From: a virus
Taxonomy: Duplodnaviria; Caudoviricetes
IMG/VR virus record: IMGVR_UViG_3300042923_000914
Coordinates: 1 to 40,995 of that record
Length of the DNA: 40,995 bases
Reading direction: 5' to 3' (one strand)
The number at the start of each line of letters is the position of its first letter. Position 1 is the first letter of the stretch. A program made the position numbers and the translations under genes. Positions 799-39,586 of this stretch are shown here, in pieces. Below the pieces are notes generated by a model. The model had not been told where the DNA came from and ran no database searches. It was given only the letters and a program-made list of their open reading frames with translations.

Positions 799-2022
799 TT
801 ACTGGAATAACTCCCTTCTCTTATCTTCATCAAATTTCTTTTCCTTACTCAATGTTAATATCAATGTTGTTAGTAACCAAAATTGATGATGTACTAAATA
901 GCTAGATGAAAACATTAATTCTATCATTACATTTATAAACAGAAATACAATTGTATGATAAGATAAATTCTTTTGTTTTAAAAGCCAATATGTGTTTCTA
1001 AGTAATATAATCATTATTATCGAAAATATTATTATACCCACTATACCAAATGATTCTAATATCTCAAGTATTATATTGTGAGGATATGTATAAGAACCCA
1101 TAGTTTCAGAATAATAACCTATCCCATTTCCTAATATAGGGCTTTCTTTAAAATCACTTATTGCCTTAAAATAGAATATATCTCTCCCACTACTTGCAGT
1201 AGTAAAATTATCACTAAATAGAGATGCTATTCTCCAAAATATTATTTTAAATTCTAAATTCTTAGAAGCAAAAACACTAACTATTACAGCTACTATACTA
1301 GAAAATCCAATAATATATTTTGTAAATTTCCTTTTTTTAATCCCATACATGAATAATGCTACCATAAAAGTTACCGCAATACTTACTAAAGAACCTTTAC
1401 TTCCGGATGCAAATATTATAAATACATTTATTATTAATAATGCTAGATACAATAATTTACTTATAAGTTTTTTTTCATGTGTTAGTTTTATGAAATTATA
1501 AGGGAATAAAGCAGACATAGTGTACCCAATTAATAAATGAGAAGCGCCAGATATACTATTAAACCCTAACAAAGTGTTATAACTTCTTAACATCTCTATG
1601 CAAAACGCTATTGTTATAAATATATTTATAAACTTTATTTCTTTATAGAAGTTTTCTATATCCTTGTTACTAATAATCAATGCTATTGCTACAGAAGGAA
1701 TAGTAAAGCCTATAAAGTATTTAAATATTTGAAAAACAATAGGCGATTTGTTTAAAGTGAAATAACTGTAAAATAAGCATATTAATAGAATTATCATTAA
1801 CATTACTATATTAACCTTACTTAGTCTAATTATTTTTTTCTCATTACTAAATGCCTGTTTGATAAAATTCAAAAATATAATACATACTAGAATAATGACA
1901 AGAATTATGTTATAAATAGTAAATTTTAAACTATCAACATTATTATCAATCATAAATAATGATAGTAAACAAAAAAATAAGCTTGTAGAAAAAAAATAAA
2001 CAATGAATGATTTAGATTTCAA
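799..2022 (-). CDS. O-antigen ligase/polymerase (Wzy_C/WaaL) family multi-pass membrane protein
   Basis: Many TM helices; motifs SGSKG, SSGRD..F, PILGNGIG, YPHNIILEILESFGIVG. Confidence 0.88.
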   Translation of the reverse strand: MKSKSFIVYFFSTSLFFCLLSLFMIDNNVDSLKFTIYNIILVIILVCIIFLNFIKQAFSNEKKIIRLSKVNIVMLMIILLICLFYSYFTLNKSPIVFQIFKYFIGFTIPSVAIALIISNKDIENFYKEIKFINIFITIAFCIEMLRSYNTLLGFNSISGASHLLIGYTMSALFPYNFIKLTHEKKLISKLLYLALLIINVFIIFASGSKGSLVSIAVTFMVALFMYGIKKRKFTKYIIGFSSIVAVIVSVFASKNLEFKIIFWRIASLFSDNFTTASSGRDIFYFKAISDFKESPILGNGIGYYSETMGSYTYPHNIILEILESFGIVGIIIFSIIMIILLRNTYWLLKQKNLSYHTIVFLFINVMIELMFSSSYLVHHQFWLLTTLILTLSKEKKFDEDKRRELFQ

Positions 2023-23968: not shown

Positions 23969-24006
23969 ATTTCAGATTATTTTTGTATTACGTAGCAACT
24001 AAAGCT

Positions 24007-24234
24007 TTAAAGGGTGCCCATTCGTTGTTTTTTCTTATTAAATTCATCTTCTCTAATAGCTCCCTCAAAGAACATACACGATAGATTATTATCTTTAATC
24101 TTCTTTACAATTTCGTTTCTTGTAAGTTTTCCATATCCAAAAATTGCAATAAAGTCGCCATAATCTTCTCTATTATCTTCAACTTTTTTACATTTAACTT
24201 CATTTTTTTTAAAATATTCTAATGCATTTTCCAT
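24007..24234 (-). CDS. Hypothetical protein (cassette-like)
   Basis: Preceded by the conserved boundary motif with RBS. Confidence 0.75.
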   Translation of the reverse strand: MENALEYFKKNEVKCKKVEDNREDYGDFIAIFGYGKLTRNEIVKKIKDNNLSCMFFEGAIREDEFNKKKQRMGTL

Positions 24235-24240
24235 ATTTCA

Positions 24241-24259
24241 CTCCCTCACAATAATTTCA
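24241..24259 (-). repeat. Boundary motif TGAAATTATTGTGAGGGAG
   Basis: Identical to 24817-24835. Confidence 0.9.
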
Positions 24260-24262
24260 AAC

Positions 24263-24808
24263 TTACTCAGTAAAATATTTCTCTATTTCTTGCTTTAAAT
24301 CTTCGCTAATCTCTCCATTAAGCATCATTAGTAAATCATCCTTAGCCATTTCTTTTTCAATCATTGAAGTTTGATGAAACTCAAATTCATTAATTACTGT
24401 TTCTGCTTTATAATTCACCTTGCTCAATGTTCCATTAGTGATATGACTATACACTTTTGGTACTTGTCTTAGTATGAAACTATAATCACTTAATTCTTTT
24501 TTAAGCTGCTCTATATTTACGCTTTCATCTTCATTGCACACTATGTCTTTCCAGAAATCATTCCACTCCTTTTCGACTTCAACATTTTCAGCTTTATATC
24601 CTGGTATAGAATTGATTGTGTTTATTAATTCCAGGTATCTTTTTGTATTTGCTTTAAACTTTTCTAGAGTTTCGATATCTTCTTTAGATTTTTTCTCCTT
24701 TGACTCTATTAAAGCCATTGTATAAGATTCATCTAAAGTACTACTACTTAAACCATCTATAACATCTTTTAAATCCTGTACACTTAATTTAATGTTAAAT
24801 ATTTTCAT
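24263..24808 (-). CDS. Hypothetical protein (cassette-like)
   Basis: Flanked by two identical boundary motifs. Confidence 0.8.
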   Translation of the reverse strand: MKIFNIKLSVQDLKDVIDGLSSSTLDESYTMALIESKEKKSKEDIETLEKFKANTKRYLELINTINSIPGYKAENVEVEKEWNDFWKDIVCNEDESVNIEQLKKELSDYSFILRQVPKVYSHITNGTLSKVNYKAETVINEFEFHQTSMIEKEMAKDDLLMMLNGEISEDLKQEIEKYFTE

Positions 24809-24816
24809 AACAATCT

Positions 24817-24835
24817 CTCCCTCACAATAATTTCA
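24817..24835 (-). repeat. Boundary motif TGAAATTATTGTGAGGGAG
   Basis: Identical to 24241-24259. Confidence 0.9.
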
Positions 24836-24836
24836 A

Positions 24837-25079
24837 TTAATTCCAATCTAACTTCTGCCCACAATTAGGACAATATTCCCCTTCTACATCATTGTCATCT
24901 TTTCCACAAGTACCACAAATAGTACAACAATCCATATCATCTATCTTTTTAGGTATCTGCTTTTTTAAAGATTCAATGGCTAGTTTATAAGCTGTTTTTG
25001 TGTCTATATTCATATCGGAAACAAATTCATTTCTTACTTTTAATATCTCTATTGCTCTTTCTTCCTTCATAAACTTCAC
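24837..25079 (-). CDS. Zinc-ribbon protein (cassette-like)
   Basis: LKKQIPKK..CTICG..YCPNCGQKLDW; likely start is ATG 25070. Confidence 0.8.
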   Translation of the reverse strand: MKFMKEERAIEILKVRNEFVSDMNIDTKTAYKLAIESLKKQIPKKIDDMDCCTICGTCGKDDNDVEGEYCPNCGQKLDWN

Positions 25080-25097
25080 TCCCTCATAATAATCTCA
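25079..25097 (-). repeat. Boundary motif variant TGAGATTATTATGAGGGAG
   Basis: 17/19 match to consensus. Confidence 0.85.
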
Positions 25098-25280
25098 TTA
25101 ATCATAGCACCTTACATTAATTTCTTTTCCACAAAAAGGACATACCTCATAATCTGCCTTTAACAGCTTGTCATACTTATTATTTCTAGTCACAATCACA
25201 TCTTCACCGCAAGATCTAGAGTATCTCCACTTATCTTTATCCAACCATTCTTCACCTTTCCACTCACAATATTTACTCAT
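25098..25280 (-). CDS. Small zinc-binding protein (cassette-like)
   Basis: CEW..SCG..CPFCGKEI. Confidence 0.8.
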   Translation of the reverse strand: MSKYCEWKGEEWLDKDKWRYSRSCGEDVIVTRNNKYDKLLKADYEVCPFCGKEINVRCYD

Positions 25281-25285
25281 TCTTA

Positions 25286-25304
25286 CTCCCTCGCAATAAT
25301 TTCA
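25286..25304 (-). repeat. Boundary motif variant TGAAATTATTGCGAGGGAG
   Basis: 18/19 match to consensus. Confidence 0.88.
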
Positions 25305-25517
25305 TTAACCCCAGTGTCCATTACGCTTTAGAATCTCTATTACTTCATCCGCATAGGGTTCATCTGTATTTATAACTAGATATTCATTGTTCTTTTTACC
25401 ATCCATGCTCCTAGAATCTGCTATAGTTTCTAAAATACCATTTAGAGATTCTTGTCCTTTAGTGTTTAAATACTTCTCCGCATCATCATTTTTGATTACA
25501 GCAAATTTCATTTTCAC
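25305..25517 (-). CDS. Hypothetical phage protein
   Basis: YLVINTDEPYADEVIEILKRNGHWG; stop abuts boundary motif. Confidence 0.8.
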   Translation of the reverse strand: MKMKFAVIKNDDAEKYLNTKGQESLNGILETIADSRSMDGKKNNEYLVINTDEPYADEVIEILKRNGHWG

Positions 25518-25537
25518 AATTATTCACTCCTCTATTT

Positions 25538-25792
25538 TTAATAGCTTCTACTCCAAGTAACATTTACTTTTTTATATTTTTCAAAAATCAGATCCGTTAT
25601 TTCATATGTCATTTTACCCTTGTGAAAAACTTGCTCTCCATCGTTGTCCAGATTTTCAATAACCCAACCTCGTCCAGCTTCATTTTGTACATACGCTAAT
25701 CTAACTTTTACATCATCACATTTAAGATTTAACCTTGGAGTATATAACATCTTTCTATATAATCCAGGTTTACTTAAAACCATCCTTCTCAC
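25538..25792 (-). CDS. Hypothetical protein
   Basis: GGAGGTG RBS; likely start at MVLSKP. Confidence 0.7.
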   Translation of the reverse strand: MRRMVLSKPGLYRKMLYTPRLNLKCDDVKVRLAYVQNEAGRGWVIENLDNDGEQVFHKGKMTYEITDLIFEKYKKVNVTWSRSY

Positions 25793-26033
25793 CTCCGTAC
25801 TTATTCTTTAACTCTAAGAGCTTTTTCATCTTATCTTCATGCTCTTTTATTTCTTCTTGAATCCTTTTATTTATAACTGAGTTGATGCATACAAGAAACT
25901 TCTTAGCTGGTTGTCTACCTTCATCAATCATGTTAAAGGCAAAGTATAAACCCGCTTTTGTATATCCTGTTTGATTTTCAACGTCTGGACCTTTTAAACC
26001 AATCCCTTTTCTAAACTCAGCGTAGCTTTTCAC
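25770..26033 (-). CDS. HTH-like hypothetical protein
   Basis: FRKGIGLKGPDVENQTGYTK resembles an XRE HTH start. Confidence 0.55.
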   Translation of the reverse strand: MKSYAEFRKGIGLKGPDVENQTGYTKAGLYFAFNMIDEGRQPAKKFLVCINSVINKRIQEEIKEHEDKMKKLLELKNKYGGEKDGFK

Positions 26034-26141
26034 CTCTCCACCTTCTTTTCTGTTTTAGTATTTTCCCTTTACTTTTTAATCTATTTTAGTCAAGTATTTA
26101 GTTCGGAATAATTTCAAATAGTTATTTTTAAAATTAAATAT

Positions 26142-26181
26142 AAAAATACCGTAAAATCCATTCCTGAATAATACGGTACTT
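26142..26181 (-). terminator. Moron terminator
   Basis: GUACCGUA..UACGGUAU-UUUU on minus strand. Confidence 0.7.
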
Positions 26182-26196
26182 TTATTAATTTTATAT

Positions 26197-26475
26197 TTAT
26201 TTAAATTCTTTTTCTTGAAAACTTTTATATTCATCAACGCTATCAAAGTAAGTAAACCTGCCCCCGTTTGAATCTGTTAACCAGTTTATATCCTCTTTCC
26301 TTAATTGCGGACCAAGTAAACAATTCATAAGTTCTATTTGCTTTTCATCACGAACTCTGATAAGGCATCCTTCTTGTTCATTAACTATATAAAATTTACA
26401 AACTTCTTTATCAACATATACCATTGAAGTTCCACCACCAAACCAGTTACCCCTGCGGTCTTCTCTATAACCCAT
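26197..26475 (-). CDS. Moron protein of unknown function
   Basis: AGGAGGT RBS; own promoter TTTACA-16-TATTAT (26534-26507) and own terminator. Confidence 0.8.
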   Translation of the reverse strand: MGYREDRRGNWFGGGTSMVYVDKEVCKFYIVNEQEGCLIRVRDEKQIELMNCLLGPQLRKEDINWLTDSNGGRFTYFDSVDEYKSFQEKEFK

Positions 26476-26566
26476 CTGATACCTCCTAAAAATATCTTAT
26501 ACTTTAATAATACCTATTTTGTATTATTTGTAAACCTATCTTGAGATAAAATTACAAAAGTAATTC

Positions 26567-26597
26567 AAGTACCGTACTATTCAGTTTTCAAAGAACA
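26567..26597 (-). promoter_or_regulatory. rrn-type boxA plus 18-nt anti-terminator segment
   Basis: UGUUCUUUGAAAA followed by CUGAAUAGUACGGUACUU, complementary to the minus-strand RNA of 26164-26181. Confidence 0.7.
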
Positions 26598-26627
26598 TTT
26601 CCCCTCACAATAATTTCATTTTCCGAA

Positions 26628-26786
26628 CTATTTGCATTTCTTACAAACAACATAACCCTTTTCTACTCTAAAGGCTCTTACAACAGTATCTATATAATAC
26701 TTTTCATCCTTCTTTATTTCTTTACCGCATATTTCGCATTTAAGCTTTTCACCTTTTGATATATGAGTTTCATAATTAGTTTTCAT
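26628..26786 (-). CDS. 52-aa zinc-finger protein, not in the ORF track
   Basis: MKTNYETHISKGEKLKCEICGKEI...VVCKKCK; GGAGTG RBS. Confidence 0.75.
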   Translation of the reverse strand: MKTNYETHISKGEKLKCEICGKEIKKDEKYYIDTVVRAFRVEKGYVVCKKCK

Positions 26787-26790
26787 ATTA

Positions 26791-27267
26791 TCACTCCATC
26801 ATGTTAAAACTAAGAGCAGCATATTCAAGTTCAAATCCTCGACTTTTTAATTTAGCATTATGCATTTCTATAGCTTTTTGTAAGCCTATTTCATTAAGTT
26901 CTAATTTTGCAAGAATGTCTGTTATAACTTGCAAAACATCAAACAATTCTTCAAGAAAATTATCATCATCTTTATTTTCATAAGCCTTAATAACTTCTCT
27001 AAATTCTTCTTTAAGTTTGTCCACGAAAAACGCCATTTCTAGCTTGTTATTACCTTTAGGGATAAATATATCCTTGGAAGGGTTAGAAGTACCTCTAATC
27101 GTCTCCTGAGCTTCTCTAGCTATATTTAAAGATTTTTGTAATGCCCTAACTTCATTTCTTAATTTAGGAATACTTATTATACTTTCAGTGTGATATATTT
27201 CATGTTTATAGTTTCTTATCATTCTTTCTAATTCTTCTATGGTTTCTTTTCTTTTATTTTCTTCCAT
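26791..27267 (-). CDS. MazG-like nucleotide pyrophosphohydrolase domain protein
   Basis: KLKEEFREV..EELFDVLQV (EExxE..ExxD) motif. Confidence 0.75.
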   Translation of the reverse strand: MEENKRKETIEELERMIRNYKHEIYHTESIISIPKLRNEVRALQKSLNIAREAQETIRGTSNPSKDIFIPKGNNKLEMAFFVDKLKEEFREVIKAYENKDDDNFLEELFDVLQVITDILAKLELNEIGLQKAIEMHNAKLKSRGFELEYAALSFNMME

Positions 27268-27485: not shown

Positions 27486-27896
27486 CTATCCTCCTATAAC
27501 TTCTATTCCTGCTAGCTTAGCTAGTCTCACAATTTCACATATTGGTAGATCATTTACTTCTACATTCTTAATCCACCAGTCCGTCAATTCTCTTTTGGTT
27601 ATTTTCTTTTTTCCTATTTCCTCAAAAACTTCTAAAGTTAATCTTTTTGATTTCTTCTTTTTGCTTGACTTAAACCTTCCTAGCCTTAAAAGAGCTAGAT
27701 TATAAAGATGTTTATCCAAATCTTCGGAATACTTTATATATTTACTTACTGTAGATTTTGCGACACCATAATCTTTTGCTATTTGTTCAAGGCTCTTTTT
27801 ACTTTCTACGTAACTTCTTGTTACTTCTAATATCCTCTCATTACTTGCTTTAGCTATCTTGAACACCTCCCCATATATAACCCTTACGAGGTTCAA
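27486..27896 (-). CDS. SpoIIID-like HTH regulator (true start probably near 27858)
   Basis: ERILEVTRSYVESKKSLEQIAKDYGVAKSTVSK resembles the SpoIIID N-terminal HTH. Confidence 0.6.
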   Translation of the reverse strand: MNLVRVIYGEVFKIAKASNERILEVTRSYVESKKSLEQIAKDYGVAKSTVSKYIKYSEDLDKHLYNLALLRLGRFKSSKKKKSKRLTLEVFEEIGKKKITKRELTDWWIKNVEVNDLPICEIVRLAKLAGIEVIGG

Positions 27897-30621: not shown

Positions 30622-30933
30622 TCATCTCCTGTACTTTTCATCTAAAAATCTTTGGTGCCAATCATTTTTTTCACTTCTTATTTCCTCGATTGTATCTAGT
30701 AATTTAGAGTTATCTTCTTTTAATTTCTCATTCTCTATTTCAAGTTCTTTAGGACCAGGCAATTCTAAGTTCCTGCATCTTTCTTCAAACCAATCTACTA
30801 GGATATTATCTGGAATACCTATTTCTATATCTGTTTCCCAATCTGTATTGGCAGCTCTAAGAGTGTGAAATGTTCTATCTCCTATAGTTCTTGTAGTTAA
30901 TTCGCATTCGTTTGCTGTTTCGAAATTTATCAT
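30622..30933 (-). CDS. Hypothetical protein
   Basis: Coupled ORF with C-terminal coiled coil. Confidence 0.7.
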   Translation of the reverse strand: MINFETANECELTTRTIGDRTFHTLRAANTDWETDIEIGIPDNILVDWFEERCRNLELPGPKELEIENEKLKEDNSKLLDTIEEIRSEKNDWHQRFLDEKYRR

Positions 30934-31577
30934 TTAGATACCCCCTCATAGCCTTTACACATGGTGTCATATTCCTGTTTAGTAAGCTTAGAAAGTTCGG
31001 ACTTATTAAATTTCTTTATTGAAGCTGATTTAACTTGTGCTGCTAAGTATCCTGCCTTTTGTGCTATTGCAAACAATCTTTTTATTTGCGCCTCAGAACG
31101 CTCAGAACTGTCGTTAGAACTTTTTGGGTTATCGGTTGATGCGTTTGTACCTTTGTTGCCCTTATCGCTTGTATCAGCCTTGCCATGAGTATTAGTTGAA
31201 TCACTATCTTTTGTATCATCAATACAGAATAATCCGTTTAAAGCATATTTTCTTGCATATGATGATACACTTCCAGTTACTTGTGCGAGATCCATACCCT
31301 TCTTAGTTTCATCTTCTCTTGCTAATGCCGAAACTTCTATCTTTTCACCTTTTTCTGCATCAATAAAAGTTGCTATAGCCTTTATATAAAATCTTCCTTC
31401 AATATGAACCATTTCATCACTTAAAGTTACTATTGCTTTTAACTCATTTAACAAAGGTTTCAAACCTTCTAAGATATCCTCACAACTTCTATAGTTGTAT
31501 TTACCAAAACTGTTATATTGGTTTTTAGGAGCTTTTAATTTATTTTGAATATTTACTAATTTTTCATATACATTCAT
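30930..31577 (-). CDS. ERF family ssDNA-annealing protein
   Basis: KAPKNQYNSFGKYNYRSCEDI and SSYARKYALNGLF..DD motifs. Confidence 0.92.
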   Translation of the reverse strand: MNVYEKLVNIQNKLKAPKNQYNSFGKYNYRSCEDILEGLKPLLNELKAIVTLSDEMVHIEGRFYIKAIATFIDAEKGEKIEVSALAREDETKKGMDLAQVTGSVSSYARKYALNGLFCIDDTKDSDSTNTHGKADTSDKGNKGTNASTDNPKSSNDSSERSEAQIKRLFAIAQKAGYLAAQVKSASIKKFNKSELSKLTKQEYDTMCKGYEGVSK

Positions 31578-37796: not shown

Positions 37797-38081
37797 TTGG
37801 AATACATAAGAAGAAGTTTAAGATTAACTCAAAAAGAACTCGCAAGTAAGCTCAGGGTAAATCAATCAACAATAAGCAGATGGGAAAAGGGAATAGGTTT
37901 AGAAGGTTTATCAATAAAGGAAATAGTTATTATATCTAATTTATTAGGAATATGCCCGGTTGCAGTAATGTGCTTATTAATTAATTACCTAAAGCACTGT
38001 AATGCGATGGGCGGGGAAATAAAATTTAATGAATGCTATTTAATGAAGAAATATCACAAGGATTTTATGGAGGGAAGATGA
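37797..38081 (+). CDS. XRE HTH protein coupled to integrase
   Basis: LTQKELASKLRVNQSTISRWEKG; TTGACT..TATAAT promoter upstream; ATGA overlap with integrase. Confidence 0.85.
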   Translation: MEYIRRSLRLTQKELASKLRVNQSTISRWEKGIGLEGLSIKEIVIISNLLGICPVAVMCLLINYLKHCNAMGGEIKFNECYLMKKYHKDFMEGR

Positions 38082-39586
38082 AAGTAGCTGTATACACTAG
38101 AAAATCAGTATATAAAGAAGGAGCTATCTCAATAGATACTCAAATAAAAATGTGTAAGGAATATATTTTAAGAGATAATCCTAATGCAGAATTTGAAGTT
38201 TTTGAAGATGAAGGTTTCTCTGGAAAGAATACTAATAGACCTGCATTTAAAAAGATGTTATCTCTAATTAAACTAGGAATGTTTGATACTGTTATTTGTT
38301 ATAAAATAGATAGATTAGCAAGAAATACACTTGATTTTTTAAAAACTTTTGAATTTTTAAAAGAAAATAATGTTTCTCTTGTATCCGTATCGGACGGAAT
38401 AGATCCTAATACTTCTGTGGGAGTTTTGCAATTAACATTGTTAGCAGCCTTTGCACAAATGGAAAGAGAAAATATCCAGGTTAGGGTAAGCGATAATTTG
38501 CTTGAATTAGCTAAGAGTGGGAAGTGGACAGGCGGGTCCGCTCCTATTGGCTATATACAAACCAGTAAAGGAACCCTTGAAATAGAAAATGAAGATATGA
38601 TTAAAGATATCTTTAGGATGAAATATGAGAATAAATCAGTAAATGAAATTATAGAAACTATTAATATTAAATATAATTATAAATTCTCTCAAGCTGCTGT
38701 TCTTAATTCTGTTTTGAGAAAGCCAATACATGTTAAAAGTTCCATAGAAGTTTCTCAATATTTACGCTCCAAGAGATATAAAGTCATAGGTGTAGAAGAT
38801 GGTTTAAACGGCTATTACAACTACAAAGATAAAACAGGGGATTACAGGGTAATAAGTAACACTAAAGCTTGTATAGAGCCTAACATGTGGCTTAGAATTA
38901 ACATGGATATGGATAGATTAAATAAAAGAGAAAACTCTAAGTTTAGCAAAGATTTTTATTTAACTAAAACTTTAGTTTGCCCAGAATGTGGAGGAACTTA
39001 TTTAGGTTGTACTAAAACATGGAATAAAAAATACACACTAAAAGATAAAACTGAAAAGGAATATAAAACAGTAGTAAGTTATTATCATTGTAGAAATAAC
39101 GCTAAAGGAAAGTTAAAAACTTGTGGCAATAATAAAAATATAAGAAAAGAAAAAATAGAAAGTGCAATAGATGAATTAATTCTTTCATTACAAGATGTTT
39201 CTAATTTTGAAAATCTTTATAATAATTCTAAACAAACTAATAATAAGAATGAAATTAAGGTTTTAAACGCTAAAATTAAGGCAATAGAGAAGAATATTAA
39301 TGGGTTAATGGAAAAGGTTATGTTATTAAGTGTAGAAGCTTCTAAAGTCTTTTTAAACAAGATTGAGGAAATAACAGTAGAAAAGTCTAATTTAATAACT
39401 AGAAGAACTGATCTTGAAATTGAAGATATGACAGTAAGTTCTAATACTAAAGAATCTACCTATAGTAAGATAATGCAATACAATAAAGATATGAGCGTAG
39501 AAGAAAAAAGGGAAATATTGATGTATGCATTTGAGAAGATTGTTTATAATCCTAATGATGAAACTCTTGAACTTTTTCTTGTTTAA
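38078..39586 (+). CDS. Large serine integrase
   Basis: YTRKS catalytic Ser, DEGFSG..RP, KIDRLAR, FAQMERE, zinc ribbon CPECG, coiled coil; start moved to ATG 38078 after GGAGGG. Confidence 0.95.
   Translation: MKVAVYTRKSVYKEGAISIDTQIKMCKEYILRDNPNAEFEVFEDEGFSGKNTNRPAFKKMLSLIKLGMFDTVICYKIDRLARNTLDFLKTFEFLKENNVSLVSVSDGIDPNTSVGVLQLTLLAAFAQMERENIQVRVSDNLLELAKSGKWTGGSAPIGYIQTSKGTLEIENEDMIKDIFRMKYENKSVNEIIETINIKYNYKFSQAAVLNSVLRKPIHVKSSIEVSQYLRSKRYKVIGVEDGLNGYYNYKDKTGDYRVISNTKACIEPNMWLRINMDMDRLNKRENSKFSKDFYLTKTLVCPECGGTYLGCTKTWNKKYTLKDKTEKEYKTVVSYYHCRNNAKGKLKTCGNNKNIRKEKIESAIDELILSLQDVSNFENLYNNSKQTNNKNEIKVLNAKIKAIEKNINGLMEKVMLLSVEASKVFLNKIEEITVEKSNLITRRTDLEIEDMTVSSNTKESTYSKIMQYNKDMSVEEKREILMYAFEKIVYNPNDETLELFLV

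Follow-up and report, generated by a model that had tools for sequence, protein, structure and literature searches.

The locus considered here raises the question of why the small early genes of a temperate phage should be punctuated by copies of a single short word. The window, that is, the whole stretch analyzed, is a complete 40,995-bp virus record bearing direct terminal repeats (IMG/VR record IMGVR_UViG_3300042923_000914, positions 1 to 40,995; Caudoviricetes), and its repeat array is located on the minus strand in a run of small genes past the replication genes. A sequence-only reading had interpreted these repeats as delimiting an integron-like array of single-gene cassettes. Our analysis points instead, with a probability of roughly 0.7, to exchange of small early genes among clostridial temperate phages at related two-armed sites of 22 bp, most likely by means of an Xer-type tyrosine recombinase acting in trans. 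The notion of site-specific gene cassettes survives in this form, as the sites mark module borders and related phages change their gene content there, whereas membership among the integrons does not.

All copies of the repeated word lie on the minus (coding) strand. Exact copies of TGAAATTATTG start at 24259, 24835, 25304, and 26618, a one-mismatch copy starts at 26116, and the variant TGAGATTATTATGAGGG starts at 25097; the copies previously listed in plus-strand coordinates at 24241, 24817, 25079, 25286, and 26602, with a core copy at 26107, are thereby borne out to within 1-2 nt. The 17-mer TGARATTATTRYGAGGG, defined post hoc, has five co-oriented matches against 0.01 expected, a count reached in none of 100 shuffles. 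When 17-mers with one free position were ranked without reference to the motif, the best occurred in four copies, while shuffles gave two (59/60) or three (1/60). The signal of the bare 11-mer with one mismatch allowed is much weaker (11 found versus 3.94 expected, with 11 reached in 1 of 100 shuffles). In the four contiguous copies, the word begins 3, 1, 0, and 0 nt past the previous stop codon, in agreement with the 0-3 nt originally read, and it supplies the ribosome-binding site (RBS) of the following gene, with its GAGGGAG placed 5-8 nt ahead of the next ATG. The copy at 26107 is found 80 nt past a stop codon and behind a hairpin; past that at 26602 come a 5-codon frame and a boxA-like word but no gene. 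The two-armed copy noticed at 23972-23993 is real (ACGTAATA CAAAAA TAATCTGA), but a weak copy suspected near 25514 is not among the window positions scoring at least 2 bits with the family profile described below and so lacks support. Nor is the conserved word the entire site, as had been supposed: it comprises the core, the right arm, and the RBS of a larger dyad with 8-6-8 geometry, the crossover falling in its first six bases.

The wider family emerged from a 16-mer scan of viral contigs, which returned 121 stretches, many of them by chance. In AT-rich phage loci, the word is again seen between the stop codon and the RBS of unrelated small genes, and two such loci terminate in the gene for a 330-aa tyrosine recombinase (the L022 type). 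Loci carrying this gene were fetched (43), and the 33 with long upstream DNA were used, 10 being omitted as too short. A de novo motif search with 14 random seeds over 275 distinct junctions gave the RBS and TCACAATTCAAA as the top motifs, and a two-class model describes the site as TCRYAATW-core-WATTRYGA, a 22-bp dyad of 8-6-8 form. Class A sites have the core CAAANA and a strong left arm; class B sites have the core TGAAWT (TGAAAT-type) and a stronger right arm. As direct repeats, the sites overwhelmingly follow the coding strand, with 109 on it versus 6 antisense in the 33 loci and 56 versus 4 in 12 other loci from records without the recombinase. In several arrays, 19-nt adaptors lead from a core of class A into one of class B (L002:7555-7600, L076:6407, L137, L151, and others); A-to-B segments of at most 25 nt number 16, and a decayed form of the adaptor is seen ahead of the recombinase gene in many arrays. 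On a named 266-kb Clostridium plasmid (L327:3994-8300), the 87-aa module is accompanied by four class B sites, which indicates that the system is not confined to small phages.

The genes themselves are not intrinsically bound to the sites. That idea was rejected for the 70-aa gene of the window array, since the 32 of 35 loci with its homologues that were scanned have 0-2 profile matches within 4 kb, and for the 75-aa gene, as two distinct close homologue loci have no coding-strand match. In higher-GC phages (L197, L218, L221, L222), other dyad-like words, judged by eye, follow the 70-aa gene, and one of them resembles a TAAAA-N6-TTTTA type. Stretches read from phi8074-B1 (18 kb), CS04 (18 kb), and phiCT19406B (15 kb) contain 2-3 scattered profile matches and no array. 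A literature search, with most subscription papers outside its reach, returned no account of the site or of such arrays in clostridial phages.

What links these sites to gene exchange is the position at which related loci cease to resemble each other. Breakpoints were taken as the ends of BLAST segments between the 33 loci and were called blind to the motif. In the 5.5 kb upstream of the recombinase gene, 62 of 169 breakpoints lie within 14 nt of a core, where 5.4% are expected, and downstream of the gene, 0 of 48 lie near one. Inside the arrays the figure rises to 48 of 69 (14.6% expected), with 30 of the 69 within 5 nt. The switch was then localized in a larger set of 63 loci with 321 distinct site contexts, using pairs that have just one flank in common, either the upstream or the downstream one; these constitute 55 groups. 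For 36 of them, the interval in which the switch most likely occurs overlaps the core, as had initially been noticed in a set of 27 groups. Exchange partners have cores of the same class in 118 of 121 pairs, a match that random pairs give about half the time. Where the upstream gene is the shared one, the left arm is 0.90 identical in both classes and the right arm is at background (0.38 versus 0.35 for class A; 0.50 versus 0.58 for class B); in pairs sharing the downstream gene, it is the right arm that is 0.94-0.95 identical. Left arms, in other words, move together with the gene before them and right arms with the gene behind them.

Gain, loss, and duplication of modules show the same borders. 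Among 230 site-to-site segments, 26 families recur in at least two loci; 24 of the 26 keep their class type, and 14 have more than one neighbor. In five joins, a single site unites the upstream and downstream sides of two different sites that one relative carries. Two are clean: in L145, the left and right arms come from two L128 sites that lie 2273 nt apart, and L141 stands in the same relationship to L151 across sites 1906 nt apart. Two further joins, more diverged, are found in L134. In L147, a 236-nt module is present twice with its borders at cores, as a tandem duplication, and block losses or gains bounded by cores are found among relatives.

Such a record could also have been left by the phage's own relaxed homologous recombination, with the sites serving as conserved linkers for an Erf/RecT-type system, as proposed for the PeSLs of T4-type phages, and the shared core marking only the best homology. 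The window indeed encodes an Erf-like single-strand annealing protein (30930-31577, minus strand; phrog_155, E 7e-56) and no tyrosine recombinase, and Erf-family proteins recombine short, diverged homologies (PMC3945230). The 17-19 nt common to the window copies, RBS included, the nine identical bases at the L145/L128 join, and the absence of any reversal of gene order among 53 cassette pairs would all suit such a process. Nonetheless, the switch stays in the core whichever arm is conserved. The main argument against plain microhomology is that the class B right arm, the conserved one and hence the stretch of best homology, is at background in upstream-sharing pairs. Homology also leaves unexplained the retention of a dyad whose spacing is fixed at 6 nt and whose cores fall into two classes. 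The PeSL cassettes are similar in that small accessory genes are inserted, deleted, and replaced at conserved intergenic elements, but PeSLs consist of a sigma-70 promoter and a terminator stem-loop and are taken to recombine by homology, whereas the phage sites have neither feature and concentrate the switch in 6 bp (PMC2839356). We regard this explanation as unlikely; the Erf or microhomology alternative raised at the outset is weakened by the behavior of the class B right arm, and the bases shared at the L145/L128 join still fit it.

The dyad might, on the other hand, be an operator or docking site of a dimeric regulator, comparable to MrpR/SPBRE or to stoperators, or else a translation signal, with swaps clustering there merely because it is a gene border. 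Its symmetry fits a dimeric protein, its right arm overlaps the RBS, and class A cores mostly occur 8-10 nt after a stop codon, where breakpoints would be tolerated anyway. The case of MrpR further illustrates that a protein with a recombinase fold can act as a repressor (PMC10516654). A symmetric binder, however, has no need for an asymmetric core that is oriented with transcription (109 versus 6) and matched in exchange partners (118/121). The seven window sites fold with only 0 to -2.7 kcal/mol and form no stable hairpin, promoter-like matches are at chance level (23 versus 18.5), and a scan for terminator-like matches returned none. In distinction to MrpR/SPBRE arrays, no recombinase-fold protein was found in the record with PF00589, and the candidate phage recombinase, unlike MrpR, retains all six catalytic residues (PMC10516654). 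A regulatory role as the whole explanation is, in our judgment, quite improbable. The exchange of genes by site-specific recombination remains the favored reading, and the geometry is that of a tyrosine-recombinase core site.

In the window, the array runs along the minus strand through six class B sites followed by one class A site; two arms are kept at sites 1, 2, and 7, and only the core and the right arm at sites 3-6. Site 1 (26605-26626; TCGGAAAA TGAAAT TATTGTGA), the two-armed first site, scores 21.8 bits with arm mismatches of 2 + 0. It opens putative module 1 (26117-26612), delimited by its flanking sites, which comprises a word that we take to be boxA-like (26578-26597), a 92-aa gene without a family match (26197-26475), and a hairpin (26142-26183). 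A 35-nt inverted repeat (26164-26198/26550-26584) flanks this gene, and contig joints at 26176-26570 were discounted, as they arise from the hairpin and inverted repeat. A boxA-like word thus stands at the opening of the module and a hairpin at its close; such a word also follows class B sites in at least eight other loci, which suggests a moron-like type of module carrying an antitermination signal. Site 2 (26103-26124; TAACTATT TGAAAT TATTCCGA) precedes module 2 (25305-26110), with genes of 87 aa (25770-26033), 84 aa (25538-25792), and 70 aa (25305-25517). Site 3 (25291-25312; GGGGTTAA TGAAAT TATTGCGA, then GGGAG) is a class B half-site, as are the next three, and is followed by candidate module 3 (25098-25298), whose 60-aa gene (25098-25280) encodes a zinc-ribbon-like protein below the Pfam cut-off. 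Site 4 (25084-25105) has a variant core (ATGATTAA TGAGAT TATTATGA, then GGGAG); module 4 (24836-25091) holds a 77-80-aa gene ending at 24837 (phrog_10714), the homologue of which in L324 is followed by a class A site. Site 5 (24822-24843; GAATTAAT TGAAAT TATTGTGA, then GGGAG) leads into module 5 (24260-24829) with a 181-aa gene (24263-24808), the product of which is fusion-like, residues 68-180 matching stand-alone proteins of about 113 aa. Site 6 (24246-24267; AGTAAGTT TGAAAT TATTGTGA, then GGGAG) and the presumptive module 6 (23986-24253; 75-aa gene, 24007-24234) lead to site 7 (23972-23993), the two-armed copy with a class A core described above, which ends the array.

Two or three of these sites are revealed as module borders by direct comparison. 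At site 2, similarity to L128, L145, L151, and the named plasmid record begins at 26131-26119, behind several different upstream neighbors. At site 7, the related contig pieces listed for runs X1 and X2, of which X1 is possibly the source sample of the window, include five that share the downstream DNA and end at 23984-23992. At site 3, a single homologous contig (X2 record 14) aligns as far as 25304 and then ends. Sites 1, 4, 5, and 6, which are without a close relative, would have an exchange role by extension from the site family, and the half-sites 3-6 may be weakly active or fixed.

Bacterial gene cassettes suggest two precedents for such an array. attC sites, on which integron integrases act, are far longer than the 22 bp seen here. 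pdif sites have distinct XerC and XerD arms, with neighboring sites in alternating orientation. A true integron-type system that lacks its integrase, with IntI acting on folded single-strand attC, would account for direct orientation and for mostly promoterless, single-gene modules, and clusters of attC sites lacking integrases (CALINs) do occur in phages (PMC9892861). Like integron cassettes and CALINs, the phage modules are co-oriented, mostly single-gene units, each with part of its flanking sites, and a tyrosine recombinase is the likely agent. Neither IntI, attI/Pc, nor an attC hairpin was found, however; there are two matched core classes and no reordering was seen (0/53), Rfam gave no match within the array (no attC-specific model being among those run), and the candidate recombinase scores 91.4 bits against a cut-off of 265 on the integron-integrase model TIGR02249. 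The integron-like interpretation is not sustained by these results, and we consider it highly improbable. A closer likeness is to the dif modules between pdif sites of Acinetobacter Rep_3 plasmids, mobilized by XerC/XerD, in that accessory modules lie between short two-armed sites with a 6-bp center, sites rearrange with one another when their centers are the same or nearly so, and the recombinase is encoded outside the array (PMC13141974). The phage sites share the two-armed 8-6-8 form and the matching centers of partners (118/121). They differ from pdif sites in that their arms are symmetric and unlike E. coli-type dif, the sites are co-oriented, only two core classes exist, and the modules are RBS-to-stop gene units of a phage early operon. 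In the tvr (SpnIV) system of Streptococcus pneumoniae, halves of one gene are shuffled at one chromosomal locus by a recombinase in cis, whereas here whole genes vary among phages (PMC6265443). By the tests made, the array is neither an integron nor a pdif array.

Which enzyme would act on the sites? The sequence-only reading held that the phage encodes only a serine integrase, so that any tyrosine recombinase would have to act in trans; this stands, as the whole window record has 0 PF00589 matches and the large serine integrase (38033-39586, plus strand) is the sole site-specific recombinase found in it. Given site-specific recombination, two candidates are equally plausible, each on a tentative footing: an XerA-like array-end recombinase of a co-resident prophage, or a host Xer, either the lexA-linked one or XerD. 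Some other enzyme is a more doubtful choice. The first candidate, the L022-type protein (330 aa), is XerA/XerD-like, with R188, K212, H279, R282, H305, and Y314 intact. Its gene directly follows a site (66-114 nt) in 14 of the 43 loci listed, and 3 of 5 records encode a serine integrase as well. A strong match to it is found in 8 of 150 host genomes, and several of its loci are without an array. Of the recombinase loci fetched from Clostridium rectalis, the one at L250:2118-3098, between hsdS segments of a type I restriction locus, encodes the nearest chromosomal relative of the phage enzyme. In phiCp-D and the Terrisporobacter phage TPELB_ph1 (XAO13717.1), homologues are encoded between the tail and lysis genes; TPELB_ph1 has a perfect 8-6-8 dyad (GCACAATT TGAATC TATTGTGC; L174:8767-8792) 208 nt upstream of its 45%-identical recombinase, and phiCp-D has none.

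The second candidate is a core component of its hosts, as 57 of 61 clostridial genomes encode the lexA-linked Xer. In 26 of 30 loci (L246:2877-2904, L288-L317), the 200 nt ahead of its gene contain a symmetric 8-6-8 dyad, TCGCTAAA-N6-TTTAGCGA, with TGTATA, in either orientation, as the commonest core; it has the 8-6-8 geometry and the outer TTCGC in common with the phage site. With its neighboring gene, this dyad looks like an XerS/difSL-type module and may represent the clostridial dif, or it could alternatively be an autoregulatory operator. XerS/difSL and XerH/difH likewise combine one recombinase with a near-symmetric site of which one half is bound more strongly, but theirs is a single chromosomal site for dimer resolution (PMC5357621), while the phages have an array whose arms differ from the clostridial dyad at two positions. 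A search for one conserved host copy of the phage consensus found none, with matches in 22 of 61 genomes versus 25 of 61 for a control pattern. Chromosomal TCGCACTA dyads were rejected as dif, as they are hairpins after genes or repeats at contig ends. Of six Clostridium rows in the supplement of PMC3025954, two are without dif and four give a different sequence, 137-176 degrees from the skew shift.

The exchange reading draws on the site family with its direct-repeat orientation and two core classes, on the class-matched switch inside the core, and on the core-bounded gain, loss, and tandem duplication seen in the aligned loci. A number of observations weigh against it. Neither candidate enzyme fits cleanly. 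Of 26 records chosen for carrying a site or a module, only 3 have a strong L022-type match, and the sites of records without this recombinase are no worse (3.6 versus 4.2 mismatches, with a selection bias in their favor); its role as an obligatory partner was rejected on these grounds. The host dyad departs from the phage sites at two arm positions, 5 and 7, that are conserved in the latter, having T and A where class A left arms carry A (96%) and T (97%); compared with TCRYTAAW, the best phage arm has at least two mismatches in 211 of 215 sites, and the host dyad is itself only a putative dif. As for the breakpoints, locus pairs share ancestry and are not phylogenetically independent, and the site profile was trained on the same 33 loci; the figures are therefore enrichments and not P values. 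The switch lies outside the core in 19 of 55 groups, and 21 of 69 in-array breakpoints are elsewhere, for the most part within genes or at their start codons. When two loci have only the downstream gene in common, their left arms still slightly exceed the background identity (0.68 versus 0.58; 0.63 versus 0.45). The fifth join, L135 versus L133, crosses classes, with a B core against an A core, and the L145/L128 partners have 9 identical and 21 similar bases in common, which would suffice for microhomology. Order reversal was seen in 0 of 53 co-occurring cassette-family pairs, many of them from near-identical arrays. Finally, four of the seven window sites have 4-6 left-arm mismatches, and no circle or site-to-site joint of the window was found in the contigs of three DNA runs, contigs being prone to drop rare variants.

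Under site-specific exchange, a recombinase would bind the arms and exchange strands across the six-base core, so that a module would consist of a right arm, an RBS, one or more genes with their stop codon, and a left arm. Modules would be lost or duplicated when two sites of one phage recombine, and array tails would be swapped when the sites belong to two phages; one good arm and a matching core seem to suffice. We put forward more tentatively a broader scheme, in which clostridial phages and plasmids would share a two-class, double-strand gene-cassette system: an Xer-type enzyme in trans might excise, duplicate, insert, and swap RBS-to-stop units of the early operon at matched six-base cores, the 19-nt adaptors might switch classes, and new genes might enter through chance half-sites at gene ends, an event that the four half-sites of the window could record.

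The phage carrying this array has a temperate-phage gene set: serine integrase, repressor-like genes, Erf, replisome organizer, DnaB, resolvase, terminase, portal, capsid, tail, and endolysin. Its host is presumably clostridial, in view of the Clostridium identity of the matching records. Immediately upstream of the array, on the minus strand, are genes for a MazG-like nucleotide pyrophosphohydrolase and a SpoIIID-like helix-turn-helix protein (26791-27267, 27486-27896), and a gene for a 407-aa O-antigen ligase-like (Wzy_C) membrane protein lies between the tail and lysis modules (799-2022, minus strand). No close relative of the whole phage was found among viral contigs by way of its helicase, and none covering the array was found among annotated phages (two short matches) or plasmids (eight short matches). 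The 19-mer scans, with few true relatives among their returns, gave 2 viral stretches, 6 genome stretches (2 of them Clostridium), and 13 metagenome stretches.

The precise exchange of small accessory genes at phage gene borders is an old question, to which the usual answers have been chance joining followed by selection or relaxed homologous recombination at linkers. With a defined 22-bp site, a crossover zone of six bases, a rule for which cores match, and two candidate enzymes that can be named, a site-specific route becomes directly testable. The dyad beside the core clostridial Xer gene may, moreover, be the clostridial dif, overlooked or assigned to another position by an earlier genome-wide prediction. 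If the host Xer is the enzyme, phages would diversify by means of the chromosome-resolution machinery of their hosts; if it is the phage-borne recombinase, one prophage would edit the gene content of others.

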